Shown here in pieces: positions 41,647 to 56,332 of a DNA stretch of 64,000 nucleotides (position 1 is the first letter of the stretch; each line of letters begins with the position of its first letter). Both the position numbers and the translations under genes were made by a program. Source of the DNA: Roseibacillus sp. (GTDB lineage Bacteria > Verrucomicrobiota > Verrucomicrobiia > Verrucomicrobiales > Akkermansiaceae); NCBI GenBank assembly GCA_051251855.1, contig JBPOGI010000007.1:128001-192000 (forward strand), in the 5' to 3' direction. The notes under the pieces are model-generated. The model was not told the origin of the DNA. It saw nothing but the letters and a program-made list of their open reading frames with translations, and searched no databases.

Positions 41647-42654
41647 ATGCCGCGAGCTTCTCATCAACAGACCATCTACCGCCAATGGCTCATCTTGCGG
41701 AAGCTGACCACCCGTCGCCCGGGAATCACAGCTCGGGAGATGAGGGACTATCTGGAAGGTGAAGACGTCCCCGTCACCAAGCGCACTGTCGAGCGTGACC
41801 TCAACGAACTCTCTCGCATCTTTCCCCTAGAGACCAGCGAAGGTAGCCCGCCCATCGGCTGGCGTTGGCGTAAGGATGCGGTGCAAGAGTTGCCGGGGCT
41901 CGAGCTCGTTGATGCGCTTTCCCTCTCGCTGGTGGGAGACCTTCTCAACCAAACCCTCCCCGCCAGTCTTCACCCCTCGATCAGCGCCCGCGTGGCCGAG
42001 GCTAGGGGCAAGCTGGATGCCCTTCCCAATCACTCCGTGTCCGCTTGGTCTCAAATGGCGCGCTACCTTCCGCCCGGCCAAGTGCTCCTCAAACCCACCG
42101 TCGACCCCGACATCTTGCATGCCGTCGAGGAAGGACTGGTAGGACAACGGCAACTCAGCGTCTGCTATCAAGCTCCCGCTGCATCCGAAGCATGGAGCAC
42201 TCACATGCACCCGGTGGCGCTTCTCTCTCATGGCTCTACCCCCTACCTGTTAGCGAGCCTAGGGAAAGGAACCGAAATCTGGCAATATCCCCTACACCGC
42301 TTCCTATCAGCCGAGCTCACTGAGACTCCTTCCTGGCGACCACCCGGCTTCGAACTCGACGAGTTCCTCGCGCAAGGACAGGCCAGCTTTGGAAAAGGAA
42401 AAACAATCCGCCTCGAAGCCCAGCTTGACGAATCACTCGCCAAGCTTCTTCGGGAAACTCCGCTCACGGACTCCCAAACCATTCGCGAAAAAGACGGTCG
42501 CTTCCTCCTCAAGGCCTCCGTTCAATATTCCTGGCAGTTGGTCTTCTACATTCTCTCGCAAGGCCCCAAGATCACCGTCCTCAAGCCCAAGTCCCTTCGC
42601 AACGAAATCATCGCCAGCCTTCAGTCCGCCCTCCAGAACTACAACCCGTCCTAA
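41647..42654 (+). CDS. HTH-WYL-WCX transcriptional regulator
   Basis: wHTH (VTKRTVERDLNEL), WYL (HPVALL...YLLA...YPLHRF), WCX (ETPLTDSQ...ILSQGPKITVLKPKSLR). Confidence 0.92.
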   Translation: MPRASHQQTIYRQWLILRKLTTRRPGITAREMRDYLEGEDVPVTKRTVERDLNELSRIFPLETSEGSPPIGWRWRKDAVQELPGLELVDALSLSLVGDLLNQTLPASLHPSISARVAEARGKLDALPNHSVSAWSQMARYLPPGQVLLKPTVDPDILHAVEEGLVGQRQLSVCYQAPAASEAWSTHMHPVALLSHGSTPYLLASLGKGTEIWQYPLHRFLSAELTETPSWRPPGFELDEFLAQGQASFGKGKTIRLEAQLDESLAKLLRETPLTDSQTIREKDGRFLLKASVQYSWQLVFYILSQGPKITVLKPKSLRNEIIASLQSALQNYNPS

Positions 42655-42658
42655 TTCC

Positions 42659-44170
42659 ATGCGCCAACTCTCCAAATCCAAGATCATCGCCTTCCGTCAA
42701 TGCCCCAAACGGCTCTGGCTCGAACTCCATCGCCCGGAACTCCGCGACGACTCCGGCAGCGAGTTCGCTTTCGCAGTCGGCAATCAAGTCGGAGACATTG
42801 CTCACCTCATCTACGACCCCGAACAAAAGGGCCAGCTCATCGACATCCAGGAGATGGGATGGGACACCGCCTACTCAGTCACCGCCGATTGGTTAGCGGA
42901 CCAAGAGGCCCCACTTTTCGAAGCCGCACTCCGCATGCGCGGCGGGATCGCCCTCGCCGACGTCATGCTGCCCCAACGCGATCAGAACGGACTCCAATGG
43001 AACATGATTGAAGTCAAAGCCTCCACTGGTCCCAAGGACTACCACCACGACGACATCGCGGTGCAAGCCTACGTCGCCCGCGAGTCAGGAATCCCGCTCT
43101 CAAAAGTCTCCTTAGCCCACGTCGATATCACCTTCGTCTACCCGGGAAGCGGCGACTACCAAGGCCTGCTCAAGGAAGTCGACATGACTGAAGAAGCCAG
43201 CTCTCGGACAGCGGAAGTCGCGGGCTGGTTCGACGAAGCCCAAGCCATCGCCGCCCAAACAGAAGAGCCTCGCATCGAGCCCGGCCCGCAATGCCATAGC
43301 CCTTTCACCTGCGGGTTCTGCAAGCACTGCATTCCCGAAAAACCTCTCATGGACTACCCTCTCACCTCCTTCTATCGACTGGGTGCTGCAGGCATCGAAA
43401 CACTCGAGGCCGCTGGCTACAACGACGTGCGAGACGTGCCCGCCGACCAGCTCAGCTTCATCAACCAGCGCATCCGAGAGCACACCATCAGCGGCGAAGC
43501 CTACTTCGACCAAAAAGGAGCGGCCGGCGACCTTGCCAAACACCGGGGCGAGCCCCGCTTCCTCGACTTCGAGACCATCGCCTTCCCCGTCCCCATCTGG
43601 GCCGGCACGCGCCCCTATCAGCAGCTCCCCTTCCAATTCAGCCTTCACCACTTGGAGCGCTCTGGCGAAGTCCATCACCGCGAATGCCTCGACACCTCCG
43701 GAGACGATCCCCGCCCCGCCATCATCAAAGCCCTTCTCGACCACTGTGGCGACTCCGGGGACAGTGGCCCCATCTTCGCCTACAATGCCCCCTTCGAGAA
43801 AAAGGTCATCAAAGACCTCATCACCGCCTTCCCCGTGGAAGCCATCGGCCTCACCAATATCCTCAGCCGCATCGAAGACCTCCTCCCCATCGCCCGCAAA
43901 CGCTACTACCATCCCAGCCAACACGGCAGCTGGAGCATCAAAGCGGTCCTTCCCGCCATCTGCCCGGACCTCAGCTACAACGACCTCGAAGGCGTGCAAG
44001 ACGGAATGATGGCCCAACAAAGCTACCTCGAAGCCATCGCCCCCACCACCAACCCCGAGCGCCGCGAAGAAATCCACAAACAACTCCTCGCCTACTGCCT
44101 GCTCGACACCCTCGGCCTCGTAAGAATGTGGCAATTTTTTAAGAGCCAGCCCCTATCCAGAAACGCATGA
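42659..44170 (+). CDS. DUF2779 protein: RecB/Cas4-like nuclease fused to RNase H-fold exonuclease
   Basis: LSKSK..QCPKRLWL, ADVML..IEVKAST..DIAVQ, QC...CGFCKHC, then LDFET, YQQLPFQFSLH, YNAPFEK, WSIKAVLP, YCLLDT. Start ATG 42659. Confidence 0.85.
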   Translation: MRQLSKSKIIAFRQCPKRLWLELHRPELRDDSGSEFAFAVGNQVGDIAHLIYDPEQKGQLIDIQEMGWDTAYSVTADWLADQEAPLFEAALRMRGGIALADVMLPQRDQNGLQWNMIEVKASTGPKDYHHDDIAVQAYVARESGIPLSKVSLAHVDITFVYPGSGDYQGLLKEVDMTEEASSRTAEVAGWFDEAQAIAAQTEEPRIEPGPQCHSPFTCGFCKHCIPEKPLMDYPLTSFYRLGAAGIETLEAAGYNDVRDVPADQLSFINQRIREHTISGEAYFDQKGAAGDLAKHRGEPRFLDFETIAFPVPIWAGTRPYQQLPFQFSLHHLERSGEVHHRECLDTSGDDPRPAIIKALLDHCGDSGDSGPIFAYNAPFEKKVIKDLITAFPVEAIGLTNILSRIEDLLPIARKRYYHPSQHGSWSIKAVLPAICPDLSYNDLEGVQDGMMAQQSYLEAIAPTTNPERREEIHKQLLAYCLLDTLGLVRMWQFFKSQPLSRNA

Positions 44171-45363
44171 ACAACCTTCAAACCGAAATTAGCCATCTCC
44201 TTATCAAAACCGAAGAAATATGCCGACGCTTCGAAGAGGTAGAGAAAACGACCGGAGCCGGATTTAACCTCCTCCATCTTCTCAACATGGGTCACTACGA
44301 AGCAAAAACTCACACCCCCATTTTGACAGACCTTCTGAACCCTCAGGGTTCGCACGGTCAAGGTGACGTCTTTCTCAAATTGTTTCTTACAGTGTGCTTC
44401 GAGAAAGACTTAGGCTTTATGTCGAAAGCCTCCGGGATCGTGGTCACGGAGGAAAAATACATCGGACGAGTAAATAGCGAACAAGCGTCTGGGGGTAGAA
44501 TAGACATTTTCTTAGAGTCATCACAAGGTGAACTCCTAGCCATCGAGAACAAAATCTACGCTAACGAACAGGACCAACAACTGCAACGCTATCTCAACTA
44601 CGTGAGCAGAGCCAAAGAGAACGGACGCGTTATCTACCTCACCCTCGACGGCCAAGAACCCGGTTCCATCAAAGGTAACAAGCCTGAAATTCTCTCGTGT
44701 ATCTCCTATCAATCACACATCGTCGACTGGCTCCGACTCTGTCGCAAAGAGGTCACAACGATTCCCACGATTCGCGAATCCCTCACAATCTATATCAACC
44801 TCATTTGCGAACTCACCAACCAAAGCCCCAACCAAGAAATGAATAAAGAGATTATGGAGTCAGTGTTAGAATCGCCTAGTAGTTTAGCGGCATACCTCGC
44901 TCTTCCGAAGGAAAATGAAATCCAGCAGTCCATCTTTGACAATAAAGTTGAAGAGATAAAACGGATTGCAAAAGAGCATTCGCTAGGCTTCTCGTTGTCC
45001 GAAAAAAAAGTAGCGGACCAGTATTTTGGTTTCAATTTAAAGTCCGAAAGCTGGTCAGATTTTTGGATCTGCTTCAACTTTGATAGCGCAAATTGTAAAA
45101 ACCTATTATTTGGATTTCAAGACGATGGTAGGCTTATTGAAGAAGAGCGGCAAACACTCAACCAAATGGTCTCGTCTCAATTTGGTGAAAGCACTGTTAG
45201 GAAAACCAAAATGTGGCCAGCTTGTCCGTTTTGGACAAAATATAGGAATTGGCACGGTGAAACTCTATCAGAAGTCGCTTACGGCAGCTTTCTCGAAGAT
45301 TTGGAAGAACAAGTGGCAACTTTCAAAAAGCTCGGTGACGAATTCGCAAGAACGACGCACTAG
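44167..45363 (+). CDS. PD-(D/E)XK nuclease (PDDEXK_4-like)
   Basis: E..HT.IL..LLNPQGSHGQG, GRIDI, IENKIYA.EQ..QL.RY, YLTLDG; ATGA overlap with DUF2779. Confidence 0.88.
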   Translation: MNNLQTEISHLLIKTEEICRRFEEVEKTTGAGFNLLHLLNMGHYEAKTHTPILTDLLNPQGSHGQGDVFLKLFLTVCFEKDLGFMSKASGIVVTEEKYIGRVNSEQASGGRIDIFLESSQGELLAIENKIYANEQDQQLQRYLNYVSRAKENGRVIYLTLDGQEPGSIKGNKPEILSCISYQSHIVDWLRLCRKEVTTIPTIRESLTIYINLICELTNQSPNQEMNKEIMESVLESPSSLAAYLALPKENEIQQSIFDNKVEEIKRIAKEHSLGFSLSEKKVADQYFGFNLKSESWSDFWICFNFDSANCKNLLFGFQDDGRLIEEERQTLNQMVSSQFGESTVRKTKMWPACPFWTKYRNWHGETLSEVAYGSFLEDLEEQVATFKKLGDEFARTTH

Positions 45364-45527
45364 AATCTAGTGGCAGAAGTTGTCACTCAAATGGTTCATG
45401 ACCGATTTTCTGAGGCTCGCAGACTGTACTAGGCCCAATGAGAGGTTTCTCATCAAGCCTTCCGACAATTACGAGTGGACCCATTCCTATTCACCCGTTA
45501 GAACAAGCCTTCTTCTGTAATTCACAC

Positions 45528-48500
45528 ATGAAAACACTCAAGTGCTGCCAGCCTCGCCAATCCGTTCTTGATGGTTCGGAAGACTTTGTAGTCAACCTCT
45601 CTGCCCTTCAGGAACTGAGCGAGGCCGAAGCCAAAGAGTTTCTCGATGCCAACGTCCTCACCTCCGGAATGGAGGAACTCATCAGCCAGTCCTTCGACAG
45701 GCTAGCAGGCGGGCCAAGCCGAGGCATCTTCAAGCTCTCCGAGTCCATGGGCGGCGGAAAGACCCAGAGCATGATTGTCTGCGGACTTCTCGCTCGTTTC
45801 CCGGCACTTGCAGCGAGCCTCCACTTTGCCAAAGCACCCAAAAACGTCAATCCCGACCACGTCATCGCCTTCACTGGCCGAGATACCGACAAGAACATCT
45901 GGATCACCTTGGGCGAGGTATTCGATGCCGACTTCGTGGAAGACTCCGCCCCGTCGGAAAAGCAGTGGGCCGCTTTGCTTAAGGGAAAGAGCGTTCTCTT
46001 TCTCTTGGACGAACTCGCCTTCTATCTCGTCCACGCCAGCACCAAGGGCGACAAGGAAGAAGGAGCTCGTTTCTCAAAAAGAACCTCCATCGCCCTGACC
46101 AACCTCTTCGGAGCAGTGCGAGATCACAAGGAGGCCTCGCAGTCAGCAGTTGTCGTCGCTGACCTGCAAAAAGACTGGGACCAAGGCCACGAAGAATTGG
46201 CTAAGATCATGCGCTCCGATGCCACCTTGGGCGGCACCATTCAGAGTGCGGACAACGAGATGAGCAAAGGAGCAGTCTCCATCTCACCGGTTGATAACAC
46301 CAAGGACGAACTCTACTCCATCCTTCGCAAACGCCTCTTCAAGGACATCGCGGTCTCCGATGCAGAAAAGAAAGAAGTCATCGATGCCTATTTCAACGAA
46401 CTGCAAACCGCCAAGAAGGCCGGGCTCATAGAGCGAGCCTTGCCTACCATCCGCGAGGAACTCGAAGTCTCCTATCCTTTTCACTTTTCGACCAAGCACC
46501 TTATCGAGACCTTCAACGACAATCCCGGCTTCCAAAAGACCCGCGACGTCATCCGTCTCATGGCCTCAATCGTTCGCTCGATTTGGGAACAAGGCGACGC
46601 AGCCGTCTCACAACACCTACTCCTCTCACTCGCCTCTCCCGACCTCAACGTCTCAGCCGTTGCTTCTCGCTTTAAGGAAATCAAACGCTCCCTCGAAGGA
46701 GCCCTTCAGACCGATCTCGCCAACGGCGGCACCTCCTACGCGGAGAGCCTCATGTCGGAGACTGACGGCCTCTCATTGCCTGCCGCGAAGTGGATCTACG
46801 CCGCCTCCCTCTCCGATACGCGACCACATGGCCTTTCCAAAGAAGAGCTCGCCGAATACATGGCCGCTCCCGGAGTCGACATCTCCGGCCTCGGCTCCGC
46901 CTTGGAGGAGCTATCTCGCACCAGTTGGTATCTCGACCAGTTCCGCAGCGGGCGCTTCTTTTTCAATAAGGTCAAGAACCTCAATGCCCAGATCAACTCC
47001 CACTACAAGCTCTGCTCCGATGCCGATCGAGACGACTTGATCGAGGACAAGCTCCGCGAAATGTTCGATCCTCGGGACAAGCGTTGTTATCAAAACCTAG
47101 AAATTCACCCCGACCTTTCCAAAGTCCGCCTCAGCCGCGACAAGACAACCCTTCTCATCTGCCAACACGACGCGGACTACCAAGCCTTCTTTCAGAACGA
47201 AAAGTTCAAGAACCGCGTCGCCATCCTTACCCTCCTCGACCCCGCCGGACTCCTCCGAATTCGTAACCACGCCAAGCGCTTTTGGGCCATCCGCGAAGTC
47301 CTTAAGGACATGACCAAGGATGACCAACAGTTTGAAAAGGCCAAAGGCGAGCAGACCAACATTCAGACCGAGCTCTTCATGGCTCTCCGTTCGCTCTATG
47401 CACGCCTCTTCTACCCCCTCGGCGATCCTACAACGGGAGACACCAAGCTAACCGACACCACTCTCCTCGACTCCTTTCAAGACGACCTTACGGGCCAAAA
47501 CATTAAGTTCGAGGGCGACAAGAACAGCTCCAAGGGAGAACTCGTCGTCGAGAGCACCCTCCGCTCAGTAGCCAAGTTCCACGTCATCCCAACTGCCACC
47601 GGTGGCGACAAGCTCAAGGGCTACAAGTCCCTCCGCACCCGCTTCGAGCAATTCCTCTTCCCGTCTTCCGGACGCGCCTCTTGGGATCAGCTCATTGATG
47701 GCGCAGCCAGCCGAGGCATCATGGTCTGGACCGAGCCCGGCACCTCTGAGCGGATGAAGGACGCCCTCCTCACCGCAGGAGAGTGGCGTCAGGAGGCGGG
47801 ACAAATCCTCAAACCTCCCTTCGTGGAACTCGCGACCGTTCACATCGATTATGATCGCAATGCCAAGACCGGCAGCATCACCACCACCGACATCAAGCTC
47901 ATTCACGGTGACAGTCTCTTCGTCTCCGAGGACGGCGGACCGGAGAAAAAGATCAAGCACGACGAGGCCTTCGTCTCCGACGCCATGACCCTCGTCTTCC
48001 AATGCCGCGACTCCACCGGCAAGAATCAGGATGGCACGCCCTACACCATTCAGAATCAGGTCACCCTTAAGCACGAGTTCCTCGATTGTAGCACCCCGGG
48101 CCATCGCACCCTCAAGCTCGGGGTCGTGCCCACTGATTCCATCGTCAAGTGGACCGCCGACGGGAGTGATGCAGCCAACAACGGACAGCCCTATTCCGCT
48201 CAAGGCATCGACGTGCCGGAGGGAGCGACCGTGAAAGTCTTTGCGGAAAAGAACGCCACTCACAACGAGCTCTCCATCCCAGTCCCCAAAGACGATGCCG
48301 GCGATGACGATGACCAGCCCACCACCGGACTCGATCTCGACCTCCCCGCCAATCTCTCCTCTCAAGCCATGCGCAAGATGGAGCTCTCCACCCGCTTGGC
48401 CGTGCACGGACTTCTCAGCAAGCTCCCCCCCGGAACCACCATCTCCGGGGCCCGCGCTAAGGTCGTCAAGGCCGCTACCGACAATCGGGTTGCCGTCTCT

Positions 48501-48689
48501 TGGGACGGGAAGACCGAAGTCTCTCCCGAGCGCATCTTCAAGGCTTACGAATTCCTCGATGCTGAACTGCAGGATGCCGAGTGGGAACTGGAGGCGACTG
48601 GTAAAATCGTCTTTCCGTCTGGACGGGAGTTCTTGGATTGGCAAAAAGAGACCTCCTACAAGATCGCACCCGGATTCATCACCCAATGA
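45528..48689 (+). CDS. DUF499 AAA+ ATPase (anti-phage restriction-like system)
   Basis: SMGGGKT Walker A, LLDEL Walker B, ILRKRLF, SYPFH, FQKTRDVIRLMA; C-terminal Ig/FN3-like (WTADGS). Confidence 0.9.
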   Translation: MKTLKCCQPRQSVLDGSEDFVVNLSALQELSEAEAKEFLDANVLTSGMEELISQSFDRLAGGPSRGIFKLSESMGGGKTQSMIVCGLLARFPALAASLHFAKAPKNVNPDHVIAFTGRDTDKNIWITLGEVFDADFVEDSAPSEKQWAALLKGKSVLFLLDELAFYLVHASTKGDKEEGARFSKRTSIALTNLFGAVRDHKEASQSAVVVADLQKDWDQGHEELAKIMRSDATLGGTIQSADNEMSKGAVSISPVDNTKDELYSILRKRLFKDIAVSDAEKKEVIDAYFNELQTAKKAGLIERALPTIREELEVSYPFHFSTKHLIETFNDNPGFQKTRDVIRLMASIVRSIWEQGDAAVSQHLLLSLASPDLNVSAVASRFKEIKRSLEGALQTDLANGGTSYAESLMSETDGLSLPAAKWIYAASLSDTRPHGLSKEELAEYMAAPGVDISGLGSALEELSRTSWYLDQFRSGRFFFNKVKNLNAQINSHYKLCSDADRDDLIEDKLREMFDPRDKRCYQNLEIHPDLSKVRLSRDKTTLLICQHDADYQAFFQNEKFKNRVAILTLLDPAGLLRIRNHAKRFWAIREVLKDMTKDDQQFEKAKGEQTNIQTELFMALRSLYARLFYPLGDPTTGDTKLTDTTLLDSFQDDLTGQNIKFEGDKNSSKGELVVESTLRSVAKFHVIPTATGGDKLKGYKSLRTRFEQFLFPSSGRASWDQLIDGAASRGIMVWTEPGTSERMKDALLTAGEWRQEAGQILKPPFVELATVHIDYDRNAKTGSITTTDIKLIHGDSLFVSEDGGPEKKIKHDEAFVSDAMTLVFQCRDSTGKNQDGTPYTIQNQVTLKHEFLDCSTPGHRTLKLGVVPTDSIVKWTADGSDAANNGQPYSAQGIDVPEGATVKVFAEKNATHNELSIPVPKDDAGDDDDQPTTGLDLDLPANLSSQAMRKMELSTRLAVHGLLSKLPPGTTISGARAKVVKAATDNRVAVSWDGKTEVSPERIFKAYEFLDAELQDAEWELEATGKIVFPSGREFLDWQKETSYKIAPGFITQ

Positions 48690-49540
48690 GACCTACCCCA
48701 CCAGAGATTCCATCCTTCGGCGTCGTCGATCCTGATGGCGAGCACGGTGTCCTCACCACGGACTCTGGGGCCCCTCGTTGCCTGCTCACCTTGGTCGCCC
48801 GCACGGAACGCGGCTTTCCCCGTCACGAGCTTGCCGCTATCCCAATGGCTACTTGGCGACAACTCTCCACCGTAGTGCAGAAGGAACTCGCCCGGGGCAT
48901 GGACCCCGAGGAATTGGGTTCCTCCAAGGCTCCTCTCTTTCGCTCCGGCGAGCAAGCTCTCAGCCCCCTCGTCACTCGGGAACTCGCCGTTCTCTTTTGG
49001 GCCTTGATGGAGGATGGCGAAGGCACCCACATCGACGCCCTTTTGACTGGCTGGCGTCAGCTCGCCCGCGAGGAGCGTTGGTGGCTCTATGCTCGGGCCA
49101 GTAATCCGAGCCAGAAGCAGGGCCGAGGTTGGCGACGGGCACTTTACTTTGCCCTCACCGACCCCGCAGACACCCGCACCGCCCCCCGCATGCTAGACAT
49201 CATGGACGCGGCGGATGCTCAAAAAAAAAGCTTGGGGACCAAACGCAAAGTCGACTATCGCGACAGTCTCAAGAAGAAAGCGGCCAGCAAGAAGACAGCC
49301 AAAAAGACGACTCCCAAGAAGGCTCCCCAGAAAACCGTCAAGAAAATCGCGGCCAAGAAGACCGTGAAAAAAGCGAACACGAAGCCCTCCCCACCGAAGG
49401 CGAAGACCCCGCCCTCTCCCCCGACAAGAGCGAAGAAGAAGAGCACAAGTCTGAAAAAATCAGCCCCTCGCAAGACCTCGAAGACCCCGGTAAAAAAAGC
49501 GACAGCCAAGAAGGCGACGAGCCGCCAGACCCGCCCGTGA
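48686..49540 (+). CDS. DUF3780 protein with Lys-rich tail (zero frame); alternative -1 frame product ends at 49560
   Basis: RELAVLFWA, W..LAREERWWLY, GWRRALYFAL; ATGA overlap with DUF499; A9 run at 49221-49229. Confidence 0.85.
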   Translation: MRPTPPEIPSFGVVDPDGEHGVLTTDSGAPRCLLTLVARTERGFPRHELAAIPMATWRQLSTVVQKELARGMDPEELGSSKAPLFRSGEQALSPLVTRELAVLFWALMEDGEGTHIDALLTGWRQLAREERWWLYARASNPSQKQGRGWRRALYFALTDPADTRTAPRMLDIMDAADAQKKSLGTKRKVDYRDSLKKKAASKKTAKKTTPKKAPQKTVKKIAAKKTVKKANTKPSPPKAKTPPSPPTRAKKKSTSLKKSAPRKTSKTPVKKATAKKATSRQTRP

Positions 49541-49564
49541 ATCAGCTCGAATTATTCTAACTCC

Positions 49565-52500
49565 ATGCCCACCCCTCCTCAGAAGAGCCTCCTCGAAGTC
49601 CAATTCCCCATCGGCCAATTATCACTGGAGAGTTACATTGAGAGAAAAGCCGGCGCATCTCAGTTTCTAAATAGCCTTGGCAAGTGGTGGGGCTCTAAAC
49701 CTTTGGTCCTCACTAGAGCTATCATTCTCGGCTCTCTCTTTGAAGCTGACGATGACCCGGAACGCTGGCCCGACGATTTGGAGATTTTCCTGCGACTGAT
49801 GGCGTTTGACAATGCCGGAATGTGGAAACGCAAAAAGAAAAAGCTGCCTGCTTCTCTTTGTTATACATACGCCCAAGAAAACGAACTTCCCCTCTTTCGT
49901 GATCCAACGACGTGGGCCAAAGGTTTTTCTCCCGAAAACCGAAAAAGGCAACTCGCTTTGGAGAAACGGGCCTTCTATGCACTCGACCACGCAGACCAGC
50001 GGCCTTTTTGCTTCCGAGTCGAAGAAATCGAAGGACCACCCGAAGAGAGCTGGCAGGAGATCAATTCTTACTGCGGAACAAATGCTCATTCTCTAACAGA
50101 ATGGGTCGAAGAAATGTCACAACGCCGCTTCGGACGTAAGCTCAGAGTCGGTGACGCTTTCAGTGGGATGGGGTCCATCCCCTTTGAGGCAGCCGAGCTG
50201 GGCTGTGATGTCTATGCGTCCGATCTCAACCCTGTCGCCTGCCTACTTACTTGGAGTGCCCTCAATGTCCTCGGCAGCGATACTAAATTCCATGAAAAGC
50301 TTTCTGCCGCTCAGCAAAAAATTTATCAGGAAATTGACGAGTGGTATCTCGAGTCTGGCCTCGAAACCAGCGAGGAAGGCTGGCGAGCTGCTTTTCATCT
50401 CTACTGTGTCGAGGTCGAGGTGCCCGAGTGGGACGGATGGAAAATTCCAGTAGCTCCATCTTGGCAAGTCGACACACAACATGGAGCATGGGTAGAATTA
50501 GTCCCAATCCACGAAGAAAAGAGGTTCGATTTTAAAGTCTGCTTCGACCGAGAAGGGTATGACCTTGCTCGGAAAGGCTCGAAGCAAGGAACTGACGTCG
50601 TCTGCCCCGGAGTTCTTTGGGAAATTCTTCATGAGAAGAAGAAGGCAGGAAATACTACTCGTTCGATTAAACTCTCTACCCTAATCGAAAACCATGGCGG
50701 ACTGAGAAAGTGGGAGAAATCCGACATCATCCCAAAAGAGGGTGATTTTTTTAGCGAGAGACTCTACTGCATTCGCTGGATTAAGCCCGTTGTTTACGAT
50801 GACCACCAAGGAAACGAAATAGTAGCTCAAGAACTCATCTACCGAGAACCCCTTTCCCATGACCTTAATGCCGAAGCCGAAATTGTTCAGAAAATCGCAG
50901 GCTCTCTAGAGGAATTACACGAGGACGGTTGGATTCCAAACTGGAGAATTCAGAACGGAGAAAAAACACGTGAGCTCATACGTACCCGCGGATGGACACA
51001 TTGGCATCATCTTTTCACTCCAAGACAACTGTTGATGGTTGCCGAGCTCTCACGTCGAGTTGAAGGATCTGAAGTCGACATTCGAATGGCCCTGACATTA
51101 GGAATTGGAAAGCTTGCGGATTATGGCAGCAAACTAGCACATTGGCTGCCATCCGATAGTGGAGCTATTGGGGGCTCCAAACAGACATTCTACAACCAAG
51201 CATTTAATACCTTTTTCAATTTTCCTGCACGAGGGTGGATCCAACTTAAACCTCAAGTATGCCTAACTCATCGTTGCTTGGGTCCATTCACAGGCTCATG
51301 TGATACAAAAGTTGGTGATGCCCGCTACAGTGAAACAGACTGCGACCTTTGGATCACCGACCCTCCTTATGCTGATGCCGTCAACTATGAAGAGCTGTCC
51401 GAGTTCTTCCTCGCTTGGTATAAGCCCCACCTTCAAGCCTGCTTTCCCGATTGGTATACTGATTCCAAGCGAGACAAGGCTGTCAGAGGCGAAGACGCTT
51501 CGTTCCGAGTATCAATGGCCGAGTGCTATTCGCGCCTAGCACAGAAGATGCCAGCAGATGGCCTTCAAGTGCTCATGTTCACCCACAAAGACACCGACGT
51601 CTGGGAAGACCTCGCCTTAATCATGTGGTCGGCAGGATTACAGGTGAAGCAAGTCTGGAGCGTCGCAACTGAAACCCCGGGCGCAGGCATTCGAGTTGGA
51701 AACCATGTCCAAGCCACCTACAACATGGTGCTCCGCAAACGCCCCGCAGACGCACCGATGGGCTTTGTCGACCTAGTCATTCCACAAATCAAAACACGGG
51801 TGGAAGAAGTGATTCGCCACATGCGGGACAGTCAGATTCAGTCCGGCGGGTTAAACTGCGGCTACACCGATACCGACTACCTCCTTGCTGCCCAAGCGGT
51901 CGCCGCCGAGGTGGTCACTGGCTTCTCCAGCATCGACGGCATCGACCTCGACGAAGAACTCCGCACCCCGAACAAGGAGCGTGGCAACTCCGTCCTGAAG
52001 GACATGATGAACCAAGCGAAGCGCACCGCAGTGGACTTCCTCGTGCCCTTGGGCCTAGAGGAACACCTCCGCCGCTCGCCGGATGGCACAAGTGCCTACC
52101 AATTCTGGCGCAATCTTTCACCGGAGGAAAAATTCCTTCTCAAGTCCCTCGAACTGGAAGCGGGCGGAGTCGGCAAGATTGGAGCCTTCCAAGACCTCGG
52201 TCGCGCCTACGGCATCGCTGACTACGAAGACCTCCTCGGCCCCGTCGTCGCCAACGAAGCCCGCAGCAAGCTCCCAAGCGAGTTTCCCCGCGCCGACCTA
52301 GCCCGCTGGGAAGACTTGCCCGCCAACGAGCGCACCCACTTCCCCCACAGCGTGACCCGCCACCTTTACCAAGCTCTCAAGATGCTCTCCGAAGGAGCGG
52401 ACGCTGACCGAGCCGTCAAACACCTCGTCGATAGCACCAACTTCTGGTCCGACCGTCAGGGCAAACACCTCGTCATCCTCGCCTACCTCTACCAAACCAC

Positions 52501-52579
52501 CGAAGCCAACCAAGCCTGGCAAGACCTCCGCCCCCTACTGCAAACCTTACGGTTGGCAGTCGAGAACCATCGCGCTTAA
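49565..52579 (+). CDS. DUF1156 adenine-specific DNA methyltransferase
   Basis: LGKWWGSKPL, DAFSGMGSIP (motif I), DLNPVA, TDPPY (motif IV). Confidence 0.92.
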   Translation: MPTPPQKSLLEVQFPIGQLSLESYIERKAGASQFLNSLGKWWGSKPLVLTRAIILGSLFEADDDPERWPDDLEIFLRLMAFDNAGMWKRKKKKLPASLCYTYAQENELPLFRDPTTWAKGFSPENRKRQLALEKRAFYALDHADQRPFCFRVEEIEGPPEESWQEINSYCGTNAHSLTEWVEEMSQRRFGRKLRVGDAFSGMGSIPFEAAELGCDVYASDLNPVACLLTWSALNVLGSDTKFHEKLSAAQQKIYQEIDEWYLESGLETSEEGWRAAFHLYCVEVEVPEWDGWKIPVAPSWQVDTQHGAWVELVPIHEEKRFDFKVCFDREGYDLARKGSKQGTDVVCPGVLWEILHEKKKAGNTTRSIKLSTLIENHGGLRKWEKSDIIPKEGDFFSERLYCIRWIKPVVYDDHQGNEIVAQELIYREPLSHDLNAEAEIVQKIAGSLEELHEDGWIPNWRIQNGEKTRELIRTRGWTHWHHLFTPRQLLMVAELSRRVEGSEVDIRMALTLGIGKLADYGSKLAHWLPSDSGAIGGSKQTFYNQAFNTFFNFPARGWIQLKPQVCLTHRCLGPFTGSCDTKVGDARYSETDCDLWITDPPYADAVNYEELSEFFLAWYKPHLQACFPDWYTDSKRDKAVRGEDASFRVSMAECYSRLAQKMPADGLQVLMFTHKDTDVWEDLALIMWSAGLQVKQVWSVATETPGAGIRVGNHVQATYNMVLRKRPADAPMGFVDLVIPQIKTRVEEVIRHMRDSQIQSGGLNCGYTDTDYLLAAQAVAAEVVTGFSSIDGIDLDEELRTPNKERGNSVLKDMMNQAKRTAVDFLVPLGLEEHLRRSPDGTSAYQFWRNLSPEEKFLLKSLELEAGGVGKIGAFQDLGRAYGIADYEDLLGPVVANEARSKLPSEFPRADLARWEDLPANERTHFPHSVTRHLYQALKMLSEGADADRAVKHLVDSTNFWSDRQGKHLVILAYLYQTTEANQAWQDLRPLLQTLRLAVENHRA

Positions 52580-52582
52580 TCC

Positions 52583-55324
52583 ATGGCTCTCCAAAGATTC
52601 AGCTCCAGACGCGAACGGCTCTTCGATGCCTTCCTCTCGAAACGTTTACCAGAAGCCACGAGCTATGACCGCATCGCGGGCTACTTTCAGTCTAGTCTTC
52701 TTTCTCTAGCAGCCGAGGAGTTCAAGGCCATCAAAACGGTCCGTATCGTCTGCAATACGGAGGTCAATCCAGCTGATGTCCATGCCGTCCGACAAGCGGT
52801 CGGTCCGAGACAAGAAGAGTTGCAAGCAGCCCTCCTTCGCATGGTCTGGAACAATGGGAACTTTCCACACGTCGTCGACGTCTACGGAGAGAAAGCAAAG
52901 AAGAGACTGCGCCTCTTGCAAGACCTCATAAAAGGCGATCCCAAAACTGGTCGCAGCTTGGAAATCCGCATCGTGCCCGACAGTGAGTTTGGCTTCATCC
53001 ACGGCAAAGCCGGAGTGCTTCGTTATCCAGACGGCAAAGCGACCTCCTTCATGGGAAGTGCAAACGATACTCGGCGTGCTTGGATGGAAAACTACGAACT
53101 CGTCTGGGAAGATGACGAGCCTGAAAGTGTTGCTTGGGTGCAGGAAGAGTTCGACGCCCTCTGGGACCGAGGCTTCCCCATCAGTGAGTTCATCGTCAAG
53201 CAGATGGGCCGTCTAGGAGAACGAACGGTAATCGAACACGTAGGCTCCTGGCAGCAGAAGCCAGAGATTGCCGCCGTCCTCGCCGAAGTTCCCACCTGCA
53301 CCGAGTTGTTCGGATTTTGGGACCACCAGAAATACTTTATCAAGAAGGCCTTCGACGAACATCGTCTCTACCAAAAGCAATCTGGCCGGGGTGCCCGCTT
53401 CCTGCTTGCGGATGGTGTAGGACTAGGAAAAACCCTCCAGCTTGGCGGACTTGCCAAATTGATCGGAACTCTCGATAAGGAGCCTATTCTCATCATTGCC
53501 CCCAAGGCGGTCGTGAGCCAGTGGCAGGAAGAGATGATGGACAAGCTAGCGGCCCCCAGCGCGGTCTGGACCGGCAAAGGCTGGCTCACCGAGCGAGACG
53601 AATTCCACCCTGCTACCGAAGACGATGTCACCAACTGCCCACGCAAGATCGCCATCGTTCCCACCTCCGTCATTCTCAGCGCTGCGAGAAGCAAATTGAA
53701 CGGCAAGCTCACCGAAGACCTTCTGAAGATGAAGTTCAGCTGTGTGCTATGGGACGAAGCTCACAAGATCCGTCGCTCCAACCTCAAGGAGCCAAAAGTC
53801 TGGCAAACACCCGAGAAGAACCTCCTCTACGATTGGGCGCTCAAACTCTCCAAGCAAACCAAGTCCATGGTCTTGGCTACTGCTACCCCAGTGCAAATCC
53901 ATCCGGTGGAACTTTGGGACCTCCTCGCTGTCTTAGCAGAGGGAAACCCTCAGGTCCTCGGCTCGGACTTGAGCCGGTGGAAGGATGCCACCAATCCGGT
54001 AATGTTCGACATTCTAGCCGGTCGCGTGAAGGTGGAGAATCCTTACGAGAAATGGGAATGGTGGAAAGATCCTGTTCCCGGAGAAGAAGAACGAGACGTC
54101 TTCCGGCTCATCCGAAGTTCATTGGAGCTAGCAGCGACCAAAGACACCGCAGTAAATGCTGACTTCGACGAAATCGATGAATTTGATCGAGACGAACTCG
54201 CTCAAATTGATTTACGAGAACTTAACCCCTTCACCATTCGGGTCATCAAGCGCTCCCGGGAACGCCTGGAGCAAGAGGGTAAACTTGTCAAAATTGAGCT
54301 GGTAGCCGTGGACGACGAGCGCCCAGTAGTCTCCACCCATAGTGTCCGGCAAGCGCTGGAGCTGGCGGAAGAATTTTCACAAGAACTCTACGAAAAAACA
54401 AAGGCTGCTGGCTTCATTAATACTGGCCTGCAACGGCGTGTCGGTAGCTCAGTCTATGCCGGGCTCAAAACCGCCGAACGCATGCTCGAAGAGAAAGATG
54501 TCGAGGACGAAGAAGGATTGGACGAAACAGGAGAAAGCCTTTATCCTCTAACTGAAGTCGAAAGAGAATTGTTAGAACGCCTCCGTGGTCACCTGGCGAG
54601 ACAATGGGAACAAGAGGGCGATCCCAAATTCGACCGTATTCTAGAGACCTTGACCTCGGACTTTGAAGGAGAGACCTGGTTGAAACTAGGAGCTCTTGTC
54701 TTCAGCCAATACTACGACTCCGCTTTCGCGCTTTGTGAGTTTCTTGCCAAAAACTTGGATATCCCTATTGGCCTCTATGCGAGTTCCAGTTCATCAAAAC
54801 TCTTTGAAGATGGGAAGGTGCAATCTGTCGATCGGGATCTACTCAAGGAAAAGGTCAAAACTGGAGTCCTCAAGCTCATGGTAGGAACTGATGCCGCAAG
54901 TACAGGCCTAAACCTACAAACCCTTGGCAGCCTCATCAACCTCGACCTCCCTTGGAACCCCACGACCCTTGAGCAACGGAAAGGCCGGGTGCAGCGAGGA
55001 ACCATGGGCAAGAGAATCCCCTTCTGCAACCTACGTTACGATGAAGGGGTCGAGCAAAGACTCTTCAACGTTCTGACCGGTCGGATCCAGGAGATCACCA
55101 ACATCTTTGGCACCGTCCCAGACTTCATCACCGACCGCTGGGTCACCGACATGCTGGAAAATCGCGACCTGAAGGAAAGCGACCTCGTCACCCTCATCTC
55201 CGACCAAGAAACCAGCCCCTTTAGCGTCAAAGAGACCTACGAGTATCTCGATGAAGAATGGGAAAACACCGCCGAGGTCCTCAACTCCCGAGAAGCAGTC
55301 GCGGTGTTCTTAAATGGCTGGTAA
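52583..55324 (+). CDS. PLD-nuclease/SNF2 helicase fusion
   Basis: YDRIAGYF, IHGKAG..GSAN PLD-like motif; ADGVGLGKT, DEAH, TATP, GLNLQ, LEQRKGRVQR. Confidence 0.92.
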   Translation: MALQRFSSRRERLFDAFLSKRLPEATSYDRIAGYFQSSLLSLAAEEFKAIKTVRIVCNTEVNPADVHAVRQAVGPRQEELQAALLRMVWNNGNFPHVVDVYGEKAKKRLRLLQDLIKGDPKTGRSLEIRIVPDSEFGFIHGKAGVLRYPDGKATSFMGSANDTRRAWMENYELVWEDDEPESVAWVQEEFDALWDRGFPISEFIVKQMGRLGERTVIEHVGSWQQKPEIAAVLAEVPTCTELFGFWDHQKYFIKKAFDEHRLYQKQSGRGARFLLADGVGLGKTLQLGGLAKLIGTLDKEPILIIAPKAVVSQWQEEMMDKLAAPSAVWTGKGWLTERDEFHPATEDDVTNCPRKIAIVPTSVILSAARSKLNGKLTEDLLKMKFSCVLWDEAHKIRRSNLKEPKVWQTPEKNLLYDWALKLSKQTKSMVLATATPVQIHPVELWDLLAVLAEGNPQVLGSDLSRWKDATNPVMFDILAGRVKVENPYEKWEWWKDPVPGEEERDVFRLIRSSLELAATKDTAVNADFDEIDEFDRDELAQIDLRELNPFTIRVIKRSRERLEQEGKLVKIELVAVDDERPVVSTHSVRQALELAEEFSQELYEKTKAAGFINTGLQRRVGSSVYAGLKTAERMLEEKDVEDEEGLDETGESLYPLTEVERELLERLRGHLARQWEQEGDPKFDRILETLTSDFEGETWLKLGALVFSQYYDSAFALCEFLAKNLDIPIGLYASSSSSKLFEDGKVQSVDRDLLKEKVKTGVLKLMVGTDAASTGLNLQTLGSLINLDLPWNPTTLEQRKGRVQRGTMGKRIPFCNLRYDEGVEQRLFNVLTGRIQEITNIFGTVPDFITDRWVTDMLENRDLKESDLVTLISDQETSPFSVKETYEYLDEEWENTAEVLNSREAVAVFLNGW

Positions 55325-55339
55325 AATGAAAACGAAACC

Positions 55340-56332
55340 ATGATCTACGACGGAAAAAACAAGTTTACGGAATGGAAATTCCCTAAGGAGAAGGATATCG
55401 AAGAAGCAATTCAGAAGGTTCGCTCAGAGCTTTTCGGTTCCTCAAGAATCTACCTGGAAGTTAAGAAATTAATCGGCAAGAAGGGCGGCCAGATGAACAT
55501 TCCGGATGCCTACGTCCTAGATTTATCGAGCGCCAAGGCACCCAAACTCTTTGTGGTAGAGAACGAGCTTTCGAGCCACGATCACTTGCGGCACATCGCG
55601 GTTCAGATTCTACAGTTTTCGTTAGCCTTCGAGACAAATCCACACCGTGTCAAGGAAGTGCTCAGAGGAGCGCTCAAAGCGGACCAAGAAGCGGAAGCCA
55701 GGGTTCATGCTTACGCGACCTCCAACGGCTTTGATAACATCGACTACCTCTTGGAACAGATGGTTCACCGTAAAGAGGCATTTAATGCCCTAGTCATCAT
55801 TGATGAACTCAACGACGAGTTAGAGAACATCTTGAAAGAGAAATTCCGCTTCCCGGTCGAGCTTCTCACCCTTGAGCGATTTCGAAGCGAAAAGGGAGAA
55901 GTCTTTTACAAATTTGAACCCCTACTTGGAGACGTCGACTCATCGGACGAGGGCTCCACGTTGCCTCAGCTCGACCCTGCGGAGCTGGACACAGTTGTCG
56001 TCCCTGCACAGGAGGAAGGATTCACTGAGACCTTCATCGGAGAGAATCGCTGGCACCACATTCGAATGAGTGCAGCAATGATTCCCCAAATCAAATGGAT
56101 TGCAACCTACAGGGTTGCCCCCCTTTCTGCGATTACCCACGTGGCTAAGGTAGCTAAAATTCAGCCCTACAAGGACACGGGAAAATACGAGCTGCTTTTC
56201 GAGGGACCGCCCGAAGAATTGAAGAAGCCAATTCGACTCATTCCCAAAAGTGCCGTGAAATCGGTTCAAGCCCCCCGCTACACAGCCCATCAACGACTGA
56301 TTAACGCAAAGGATCTCAACGAAGCATTTTAA
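55340..56332 (+). CDS. Putative PD-(D/E)XK endonuclease with C-terminal PUA-like domain
   Basis: E.DIE...IPDAY...VVENEL...Q nuclease-type motif; C-terminal VVPAQEEGF...WHHIR...WIATYRVAPLSAITHVAKV. Confidence 0.65.
   Translation: MIYDGKNKFTEWKFPKEKDIEEAIQKVRSELFGSSRIYLEVKKLIGKKGGQMNIPDAYVLDLSSAKAPKLFVVENELSSHDHLRHIAVQILQFSLAFETNPHRVKEVLRGALKADQEAEARVHAYATSNGFDNIDYLLEQMVHRKEAFNALVIIDELNDELENILKEKFRFPVELLTLERFRSEKGEVFYKFEPLLGDVDSSDEGSTLPQLDPAELDTVVVPAQEEGFTETFIGENRWHHIRMSAAMIPQIKWIATYRVAPLSAITHVAKVAKIQPYKDTGKYELLFEGPPEELKKPIRLIPKSAVKSVQAPRYTAHQRLINAKDLNEAF

Follow-up and report, generated by a model that had tools for sequence, protein, structure and literature searches.

Gene content of the DUF3780 locus

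The window analysed here is a stretch of 64,000 nucleotides (nt) from Roseibacillus sp. (Verrucomicrobiota; assembly GCA_051251855.1, contig JBPOGI010000007.1, positions 128,001 to 192,000 of the forward strand). It carries an operon of four anti-phage genes, the second of which encodes a DUF3780 protein. Just past the part of this gene that encodes the conserved core lies a run of nine adenines (A9), downstream of which both the standard frame (frame 0) and the -1 frame stay open. We put at roughly 0.7 the probability that the run is a programmed recoding site, at which a slip would swap one C-terminal tail for another and the end of the -1 tail would act as a docking peptide. Judged by comparison with related loci, one gene very probably makes two proteins. 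The features of the locus are listed below.

45438..48689, plus strand: DUF499 AAA+ ATPase, 1083 aa (Pfam PF04465, E 2.4e-18; PADLOC DUF499, E 1.5e-117)
48686..49540, plus strand: DUF3780 gene in standard decoding, 284 aa, core and basic Lys/Ala/Pro/Thr tail
48686..49219, plus strand: DUF3780 core, 178 aa, common to both products
49221..49229, plus strand: A9 slippery run, putative recoding site (CAA AAA AAA A)
49228..49560, plus strand: -1-frame tail, 110 codons and TAA, entered solely via a one-base slip in the run
49538..49540, plus strand: frame-0 stop TGA, 20 nt ahead of the -1 stop
49543..49557, plus strand: QLELF, clamp-binding-like C-terminal motif of the predicted -1 product, past the frame-0 stop
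49565..52579, plus strand: DUF1156 N6-adenine methyltransferase, 1004 aa (Pfam PF06634; PADLOC DUF1156_MTase, E 1.7e-224; NCBIfam NF042963, 964 bits)
52583..55324, plus strand: PLD/HKD nuclease-SNF2 helicase fusion, the effector, 913 aa (Pfam PLDc_2, SNF2-rel_dom and Helicase_C; PADLOC PLD_Helicase, E 6.2e-206)

The DUF3780 start codon at 48686 overlaps the DUF499 stop codon as ATGA. The DUF3780 protein matches Pfam PF12635 over residues 50-172 (69.9 bits, the cut-off being 27; E 3.1e-19) and the PADLOC DUF3780 model (E 4.3e-16). With the NCBIfam equivalog models the scores are low: 67.3 bits for NF042961 ('anti-phage-associated DUF3780'), below its 200-bit cut-off, and 499 bits for the DUF499 ATPase with NF042962, under the cut-off of 1200. 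The window protein falls in a divergent, long-tailed clade of ~30-35% sequence identity to the short DUF3780 subfamily. By gene content, with all four hallmark genes in one locus on the plus strand, the operon is classed as a Type-2 BREX-related (BR) system. Standalone DUF3780 is a hallmark of this DUF499-DUF1156-PLD-helicase-DUF3780 anti-phage system and has been proposed to be a reader of modified bases (PMC12839542; this and the other papers are cited from parts of their text). As in the published system, four genes form one operon here, and a standalone DUF3780 with an alpha+beta core lies between ATPase and methylase; a base-reading role is proposed there, and a slip site and a clamp-like motif are described here. 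The words frameshift, slippage, clamp, recoding and DnaN do not occur in the main text of that paper, its supplements lying outside the search. The system is sporadic: its DUF3780 core occurs in 3 of 401 genomes sampled from the phylum (the genome of the window among them), and the family was not found in 14 control genomes.

Positions 49217-49231 read GCT CAA AAA AAA AGC, with the nine adenines at 49221-49229. Frame 0 ends with the TGA at 49538-49540 and gives a 284-aa protein with a tail rich in Lys, Ala, Pro and Thr. The -1 frame is open from 49129 to the TAA at 49558-49560, and its last residues are PPVNQLELF. A slip in the run yields a protein of 181 + 110 = 291 aa, whose stop codon lies 4 nt ahead of the methylase ATG at 49565. 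An A_AAA_AAA heptamer stands in the zero frame at 49222-49228; any A9 run contains one in whatever phase. An earlier reading made from the letters of the window (the sequence-only reading) had placed the run, the heptamer, both products and the distance to the methylase gene correctly. The genome (4.96 Mb) contains eight A/T runs of at least 9 nt, where ~12 are expected, and none of at least 10 nt. By itself an A9 is unremarkable; it is the preservation in relatives of the run, the open -1 frame and the terminal motif that goes beyond chance.

Three assemblies of the locus (X1, X4 and X5, the last from another study) all carry A9 and have no indel in the run; they were compared as contigs only, in which rare length variants are invisible. 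An error of assembly that hides a true A10 is rejected, as A9 is found in independent assemblies and in relatives. In the AlphaFold model of the DUF3780 protein the residue blocks from 11 to 130 have a mean predicted local distance difference test score (pLDDT) of 80-93, most residues beyond ~185 score below 50, and the predicted last helix (166-186) spans the residues encoded by the run. No structural homologue of the core was found by Foldseek in the PDB at E <= 0.001.

The +1 frame past the run (49229-49375) is also open, for 48 codons that encode an Arg-rich peptide. Loss of one A from the mRNA would give a third isoform in this frame, whose length and end are not kept in relatives. A second A9 within a long open reading frame (ORF) of the genome lies outside the window (G000:C11:29335), in frame (..HEKKTS..) in an ORF of 849 codons, where the other two frames close after ~40 codons. 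This ORF looks repeat-rich (TPR-like) by eye only, and its A9 bears no sign of recoding.

Conservation of the run and of the terminal motif

A protein homologue search returned 255 proteins at E <= 1e-3, the best 120 of which were examined. All 120 share the conserved core up to the residues AQKK (58 invariant columns in the core alignment, A1). After AQKK a basic tail follows in 115 of them, and the other five (P0039, P0045, P0077, P0086 and P0103) have a neutral or acidic tail that ends in QLALF, QLDLF, QLDLL, QLELF and QLDLL, respectively. The called ORFs of these five diverge from the rest exactly at the run and correspond to the -1 reading of the same DNA.

At the DNA level, 28 loci on genome contigs and 80 metagenome loci were compared together with the window. 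In 47 of these 109 sequences the run is present at the end of the core, and the motif Q..[LM][FL] is distributed over the frames downstream as follows.

Motif in the -1 frame: 38 of 47 loci (33 with A9, 5 with A10)
Motif in frame 0: 4 of 47 loci (L001 with A7; L055 and L060 with A10; L039 with A9 in another phase)
Motif in the +1 frame: 1 of 47 loci (L043)
Motif absent or cut: 4 of 47 loci (L030, L044, L045 and L006)

One further locus, on a metagenome-assembled genome (MAG) of Rhodopirellula sp. from another phylum (L004), has its A9 further downstream, at L004:1536-1544. Its -1 frame ends in PPNQLELF, near-identical to the end in the window, and its frame 0 encodes a long basic tail of ~100 residues past the run. 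With this locus the shared layout, A9 or A10 and Q[LIM]x[LM]F closing the -1 frame, is found in 39 of 48 loci, which supports what the sequence-only reading had asked to be checked, namely conservation of the run, both open frames and the QLxLF of the -1 frame among DUF3780 genes. The likeness of L004 to the window suggests horizontal spread of the recoding layout between phyla.

The run-bearing loci span core identities from 82% down to ~45%. Among 33 aligned -1-frame ends (A3) the Q and the L are invariant and the F is present in at least 90%; a RRKKKK patch about 6-9 residues ahead of QIDLF is kept in one subclade. In 31 of the 38 loci an ATG is found between -4 and +6 nt from the -1 stop; the -1 frame thus terminates at the expected gene boundary, directly beside the methylase gene. 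In the DNA alignment of 26 sequences (A4) the run is the sole near-invariant element, and the peptide encoded 5' of it differs by subclade (AQKK or PxEKK). One subclade (L065, L048, L061 and L062) opens the -1 tail with a short LWEHxExL..EA stretch, and its frame 0 is a low-complexity sequence of Ser, Gly and Lys.

The same type of C-terminus is found in frame in DUF3780 proteins whose genes lack the run. Three loci of similar core identity (L051, L069 and L072) end in frame in QQLDLF, KQEKLF and PQMPLF. The short subfamily, which bears the NCBI name 'anti-phage-associated DUF3780' and gave 4,395 hits, has the in-frame consensus end RKRRPRPVEQDLFxLPLF followed by ~4 residues, and a C-terminal LF is present in 119 of the 120 listed members. 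Of 148 representatives of clusters at 50% identity, 26 fit a loosely defined Q..LF-type pattern at the C-terminus; the rest include many fragments and proteins that stop just past the core. Distant run-less members of the family thus finish in frame with a basic patch and DLFxLPLF, which makes the -1 tail the ancestral C-terminus. This ancestral end consists of a basic patch and an xLF peptide, which the A9 clade can reach only via the -1 frame.

Possible partners of the C-terminal motif

Proteins that bind the beta sliding clamp carry the consensus QL[SD]LF or QxxLxF, which is C-terminal in MutS, Pol II/IV/V and Hda. The NQLELF-stop of the -1 frame fits this consensus, a likeness that the sequence-only reading had pointed out. 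Only two of the 7,514 stop-to-stop ORFs of at least 150 codons in the genome have Q[LIMV]x[LM]F no more than 3 residues from the stop, namely this -1 frame and MutS (Pfam MutS I-V; G000:C7:523055-525577, minus strand), which ends in PQMDLFG. Known clamp-binding motifs of MutS are QMSLL, QLSFF and DLPLF, the last of which is required for the localisation of MutS to the replisome in Caulobacter (PMC8034640). The short DUF3780 subfamily has a DLPLF-like end.

The genome's DnaN (23 rows in the alignment) and the C-terminal 45 residues of the -1 tail (33 rows) were modelled as a complex, with a score of 0.60 (runs 0.55, 0.60 and 0.60); the three controls with unrelated partners scored 0.00-0.02, the best of them 0.02. 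At least 68% of contacts are shared between the runs, and the pLDDT of the partner is at least 40. Of 157 solved complexes 116 attained the mark applied, as did 2 of 215 mismatches; at scores of 0.60 or less it was reached by just 18 of the 157 solved complexes and by both of the passing mismatches, counts that hold only roughly here because our own alignments were used. Structures of clamp-peptide complexes have already been solved, and the pass may for this reason reflect likeness or memory only. On the motif and this prediction together, we lean, by a small margin, towards binding of the QLELF end of the -1 product to the beta clamp.

The slip may also be real and the Q[LIM]xLF peptide dock on another subunit of the system (the DUF499 ATPase, the methylase or the HKD-helicase) or on some other host factor. 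The motif is family-wide and always encoded directly beside the methylase gene, the xLF core is common to many short linear motifs, and our literature search turned up no link between a BREX-type system and the clamp; the weak DnaN prediction, with a partner pLDDT of ~40, also leaves room for another partner. Against this stand the match of both family flavours, Q[LM]xLF and DLPLF, to the clamp pentapeptide validated in MutS (PMC8034640), the absence of such an end from every other long ORF of the genome except mutS, and the near-zero scores of the unrelated partners. The motif is moreover constant while the system crosses phyla, as would fit a universally conserved host target; one homologue named for Bradyrhizobium is 76% identical to a Chloroploca query. 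We regard docking on a partner other than the clamp as the less probable alternative, though one to be taken seriously.

Selection on the -1 frame

In a test that kept the frame-0 protein and resampled its synonymous codons from local usage, 28 loci (10 of the 38 being dropped for want of flanking ORFs) contained a single -1-frame stop where 65.2 were expected. The +1 control showed no depletion (36 observed, 25.4 expected).

Substitutions are distributed differently in core and tail: over 15 disjoint pairs of loci, codon positions 1/2/3 received 246/182/676 of them in the core, mostly at position 3, as against 187/224/202 in the tail. In the tails of six close pairs, 51 changes are silent solely in frame 0 and 48 solely in the -1 frame, compared with 173 and 27 in the core as a control. 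Tail changes silent in neither frame number 53, where 70.1 are expected, and both classes silent in one frame are enriched over these. Of the 12 core changes in the nearest strain variant (X5), 11 are synonymous in frame 0. Four of the six changes in its tail are silent in the -1 frame, none of the five that affect sense codons is silent in frame 0, and the sixth turns the frame-0 stop from TGA into TAA, synonymously in the -1 frame; the tail indels of this variant are of 12, 12 and 6 nt. In the window all seven T-ending frame-0 codons of the tail precede a codon that starts with C (read by eye).

The -1 reading frame would be of no consequence if it were a by-product of a T-poor, AAG-rich tail, or if the true run were A10 and the A9 an assembly error. 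The tail is indeed very T-poor (AT skew 0.445) and all frames tend to be open, as is the +1 frame over 48 codons in the window; shuffles of codon order expect just 0.2-3 -1 stops per locus. A by-product does not account for the loss of -1 stops in the synonymous resampling, with the +1 control undepleted, nor for a motif that lies past the frame-0 stop and is yet kept in 39 loci, nor for a -1 stop that sits at the ancestral end of the gene beside the methylase ATG; and A9 recurs across independent assemblies and studies. We consider it highly improbable that the -1 frame is without function.

With two exceptions, the 38 loci have a basic frame-0 tail (net charge +9 to +41; +1 in L074), while the -1 tails of relatives carry net charges anywhere between -18 and +11. 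Frame-0 basicity is no independent evidence, as it follows mechanically from an E/Q/K-rich -1 frame, and vice versa; the openness of frame 0, too, is largely a consequence of the -1 frame. The acidic -1 tail is a peculiarity of the lineage of the window, and charge switching is lineage-specific. The proposal that isoforms of opposite charge, one of them a mimic of DNA, are a general feature of the gene is not supported by this comparison; what is conserved is the terminal motif and, in one subclade, the basic patch.

Entry into the -1 frame and the type of slip

Of the 38 loci whose motif is in the -1 frame, 14 lack any ATG, GTG or TTG in that frame from its last stop 5' of the run to 25 codons beyond the run. 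A -1 stop abuts the run in 9 of the 38 (GCT GAA, read as TGA). The remaining loci have upstream -1 start codons, which are not conserved. The lack of a usable -1 start and the stop that abuts the run mean that entry must occur inside the run. A separate small gene in the -1 frame is rejected on the same two counts.

No conserved RNA structure or flank was detected around the run (RNAalifold, 26 sequences, positions -60 to +45, 0 pairs), in line with the remark of the sequence-only reading that no convincing 3' stimulator is apparent. The run is 9-10 nt long in all 38 loci, and L039 holds A9 in another phase; this length is held although AAG is the commoner Lys codon in the genome (56%). Runs of A with n > 7 or of T with n > 8 are sites of transcriptional slippage, and the A9 of Thermus thermophilus dnaX is an example (PMC3711429). 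Slippage of RNA polymerase is favoured here because only the run is conserved, RNA structure was not found, the length is held at 9-10 and there is a known precedent for A runs.

Several points weigh against a programmed slip at the run. Most loci are metagenome contigs or MAGs, many of them kin, and the counts of loci overstate independence. Exceptions to the layout occur: the motif is in the +1 frame in L043, the end is disturbed in L030 and L044, and L005 and L035 have the motif in no frame. The DnaN prediction amounts to 'weak support'. Frame-0 stops are depleted (5 observed, 17.1 expected) no more strongly than in the corresponding +1 control (37 and 85.6), which leaves a selected role for the basic frame-0 tail unproven. 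Shuffles of codon order have no power at an expectation of only ~0-3 -1 stops per locus, and neither codon-usage fit nor GC3 separates the frames (scores of 0.066 in frame 0 and 0.099 in the -1 frame, against 0.078 +/- 0.115 for the genome). Cross-clade similarity of the tails without the motif is close to zero in both frames (median z 0.19 for frame 0 and 0.29 for the -1 frame, 150 pairs). The lack of a 3' stimulator or upstream element in our search weakens the version with a ribosomal frameshift, and the genome's own dnaX, a single ORF without a long A run, provides no precedent in the same genome. Finally, the contigs L053 (A9) and L055 (A10), which are sister records, have no mismatch in 2,390 nt and differ solely in the length of the run (within L053:2122-2242 and L055:2940-3060), such that L055 reads the motif tail in frame and L053 does not. 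Given this pair and the A7 and A10 variants, run length varies in DNA, or in records, and phase variation could supply the -1 product.

The sequence-only reading had named a phase-variable tract as an alternative to recoding. Slipped-strand mispairing during replication would toggle the gene between A9 (basic, motif-less) and A10 or A7-like states (motif in frame), with no slip of polymerase or ribosome. The pair L053/L055 and the in-frame variants in 4 of 47 loci (L055 included) and in 5 of 120 listed proteins fit this idea, as do several representatives of the 50% clusters with a KK junction and an in-frame motif tail, and switching of restriction and modification genes by homopolymers is well known (PMC3711429). 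The distribution of run lengths speaks against it: 33 A9 and 5 A10 in the 38 loci, with the state that requires a shift found in 39 of 48 loci, at identities down to ~45% and in two phyla. Typical contingency loci show a broad spread of tract lengths and frequent ON alleles, a pattern that differs from the near-fixed tract of the DUF3780 genes. The three assemblies of the locus in the window, compared as contigs only, are all A9, and the difference between L053 and L055 could be an assembly error or stem from cDNA-derived records. We consider switching at the DNA level alone an unlikely, though live, explanation.

A model of DUF3780 recoding

We propose that standard decoding of the A9 run would give the 284-aa protein, with a disordered basic tail and no terminal motif, and that a one-base slip within the run would lead into the -1 frame and give a 291-aa isoform with a different linker and the QLELF end. 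The slip would most likely be the addition of an extra A to the mRNA by RNA polymerase, as at the A9 of Thermus dnaX, possibly joined by -1 ribosomal frameshifting on A_AAA_AAA. The QLELF end would represent the ancestral docking peptide of DUF3780, probably for the beta sliding clamp. The slip site would thus govern what share of DUF3780 is docking-competent. The level of the slip, polymerase or ribosome, its efficiency and anything that the basic tail may do are inferred.

We speculate, with some diffidence, that a mobile BREX-related system fixes by a poly-A slip the fraction of DUF3780 that bears a beta-clamp peptide, and is in this way tied to the clamps left on replicating DNA. Such a link could couple maintenance methylation to host replication forks, in the manner of the eukaryotic maintenance methylase DNMT1 and its coupling to PCNA, or could direct the complex of ATPase, methylase and nuclease-helicase to replicating phage DNA, with the motif-less basic isoform as a free or competing form. 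The switch between restriction and fork-coupled methylation that the sequence-only reading put forward would be a speculative extension of this idea. For the question of how BREX and BREX-related systems locate foreign DNA in replication and maintain the methylation of their own, a peptide resembling a clamp-docking motif at the end of DUF3780 points to a concrete contact with the replisome. Most family members have this peptide in frame, and in the A9 clade it lies behind a conserved slip site.

Comparison with known systems

The production of two C-termini by poly-A recoding is already known from dnaX and insertion sequence (IS) elements, and DUF3780 is not among the cases named in the literature searched. 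In Escherichia coli dnaX a -1 frameshift occurs on A_AAA_AAG, and two-ORF dnaX genes with A10 exist (Antonov et al. 2013, PMC3711429). As in dnaX tau/gamma, the DUF3780 gene combines a conserved poly-A run, a shared N-terminal part, two C-termini of which one has a docking region, and in-frame fused homologues. Unlike dnaX, it sits in a mobile anti-phage system, and both of its frames are open for 50-150 codons, whereas gamma stops quickly; its slip is deduced from sequence, and no stimulatory structure was found.

The transposase orfA/orfAB genes of IS elements and the GeneTack clusters likewise conserve A_AAA_AAA-type or An motifs within a cluster and achieve fusion via a -1 shift or mRNA indels (PMC3711429; PMC4066793). 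The shifted part of DUF3780 differs from theirs in being a short linker with a putative docking peptide and not a catalytic domain. Named clusters in these two papers include magnesium chelatase, DUF111, DUF772 and a spore germination protein; DUF3780 does not appear in the portions of their text that were searched.

Phase variation at homopolymers occurs in restriction-modification genes and in the methylase genes of BREX/Pgl systems. The DUF3780 tract resembles these in its position in a defence locus and in its natural frame-changing variants (L053/L055, L001 and L060). It differs in lying in an accessory subunit and not in the methylase, and in a length nearly fixed at 9; moreover, neither state truncates the DUF3780 core, and the 'off-frame' state predominates, with a conserved ORF. 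With the clamp-binding motifs of MutS, Pol II/IV/V and Hda, DUF3780 shares Q-[LIM]-x-[LM]-F at or near the C-terminus after a disordered linker. In contrast to them, DUF3780 is a protein of a defence system and gains the motif only through a change of frame, and the binding of the motif is predicted.

In the searchable literature, 'DUF3780' was found only in PMC12839542 and its preprint, and searches for transcriptional slippage together with a clamp-binding motif, or for a clamp motif together with defence, returned nothing relevant. The DUF3780 gene would add a deeply conserved recoding site to the usual cases of dnaX, prfB and IS elements, in a defence gene and in at least two phyla. As gene callers annotate one of the two products, sequence catalogues miss the motif throughout the A9 clade.

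Flanking genes

Directly 3' of the helicase gene, on the plus strand, lies an ORF of 330 aa (55340-56332) that has no match in Pfam, PADLOC or NCBIfam and could be an accessory gene of the system not characterised so far. On the 5' side (42389-45363, plus strand) are a DUF2779/Cas4-like nuclease gene and a PDDEXK_4 gene that matches the candidate defence family PDC-S26 (E 5e-98), and the GC content falls to 0.43-0.46 at 44500-45500. The nuclease genes and this dip give the region 5' of the system the appearance of a defence island.

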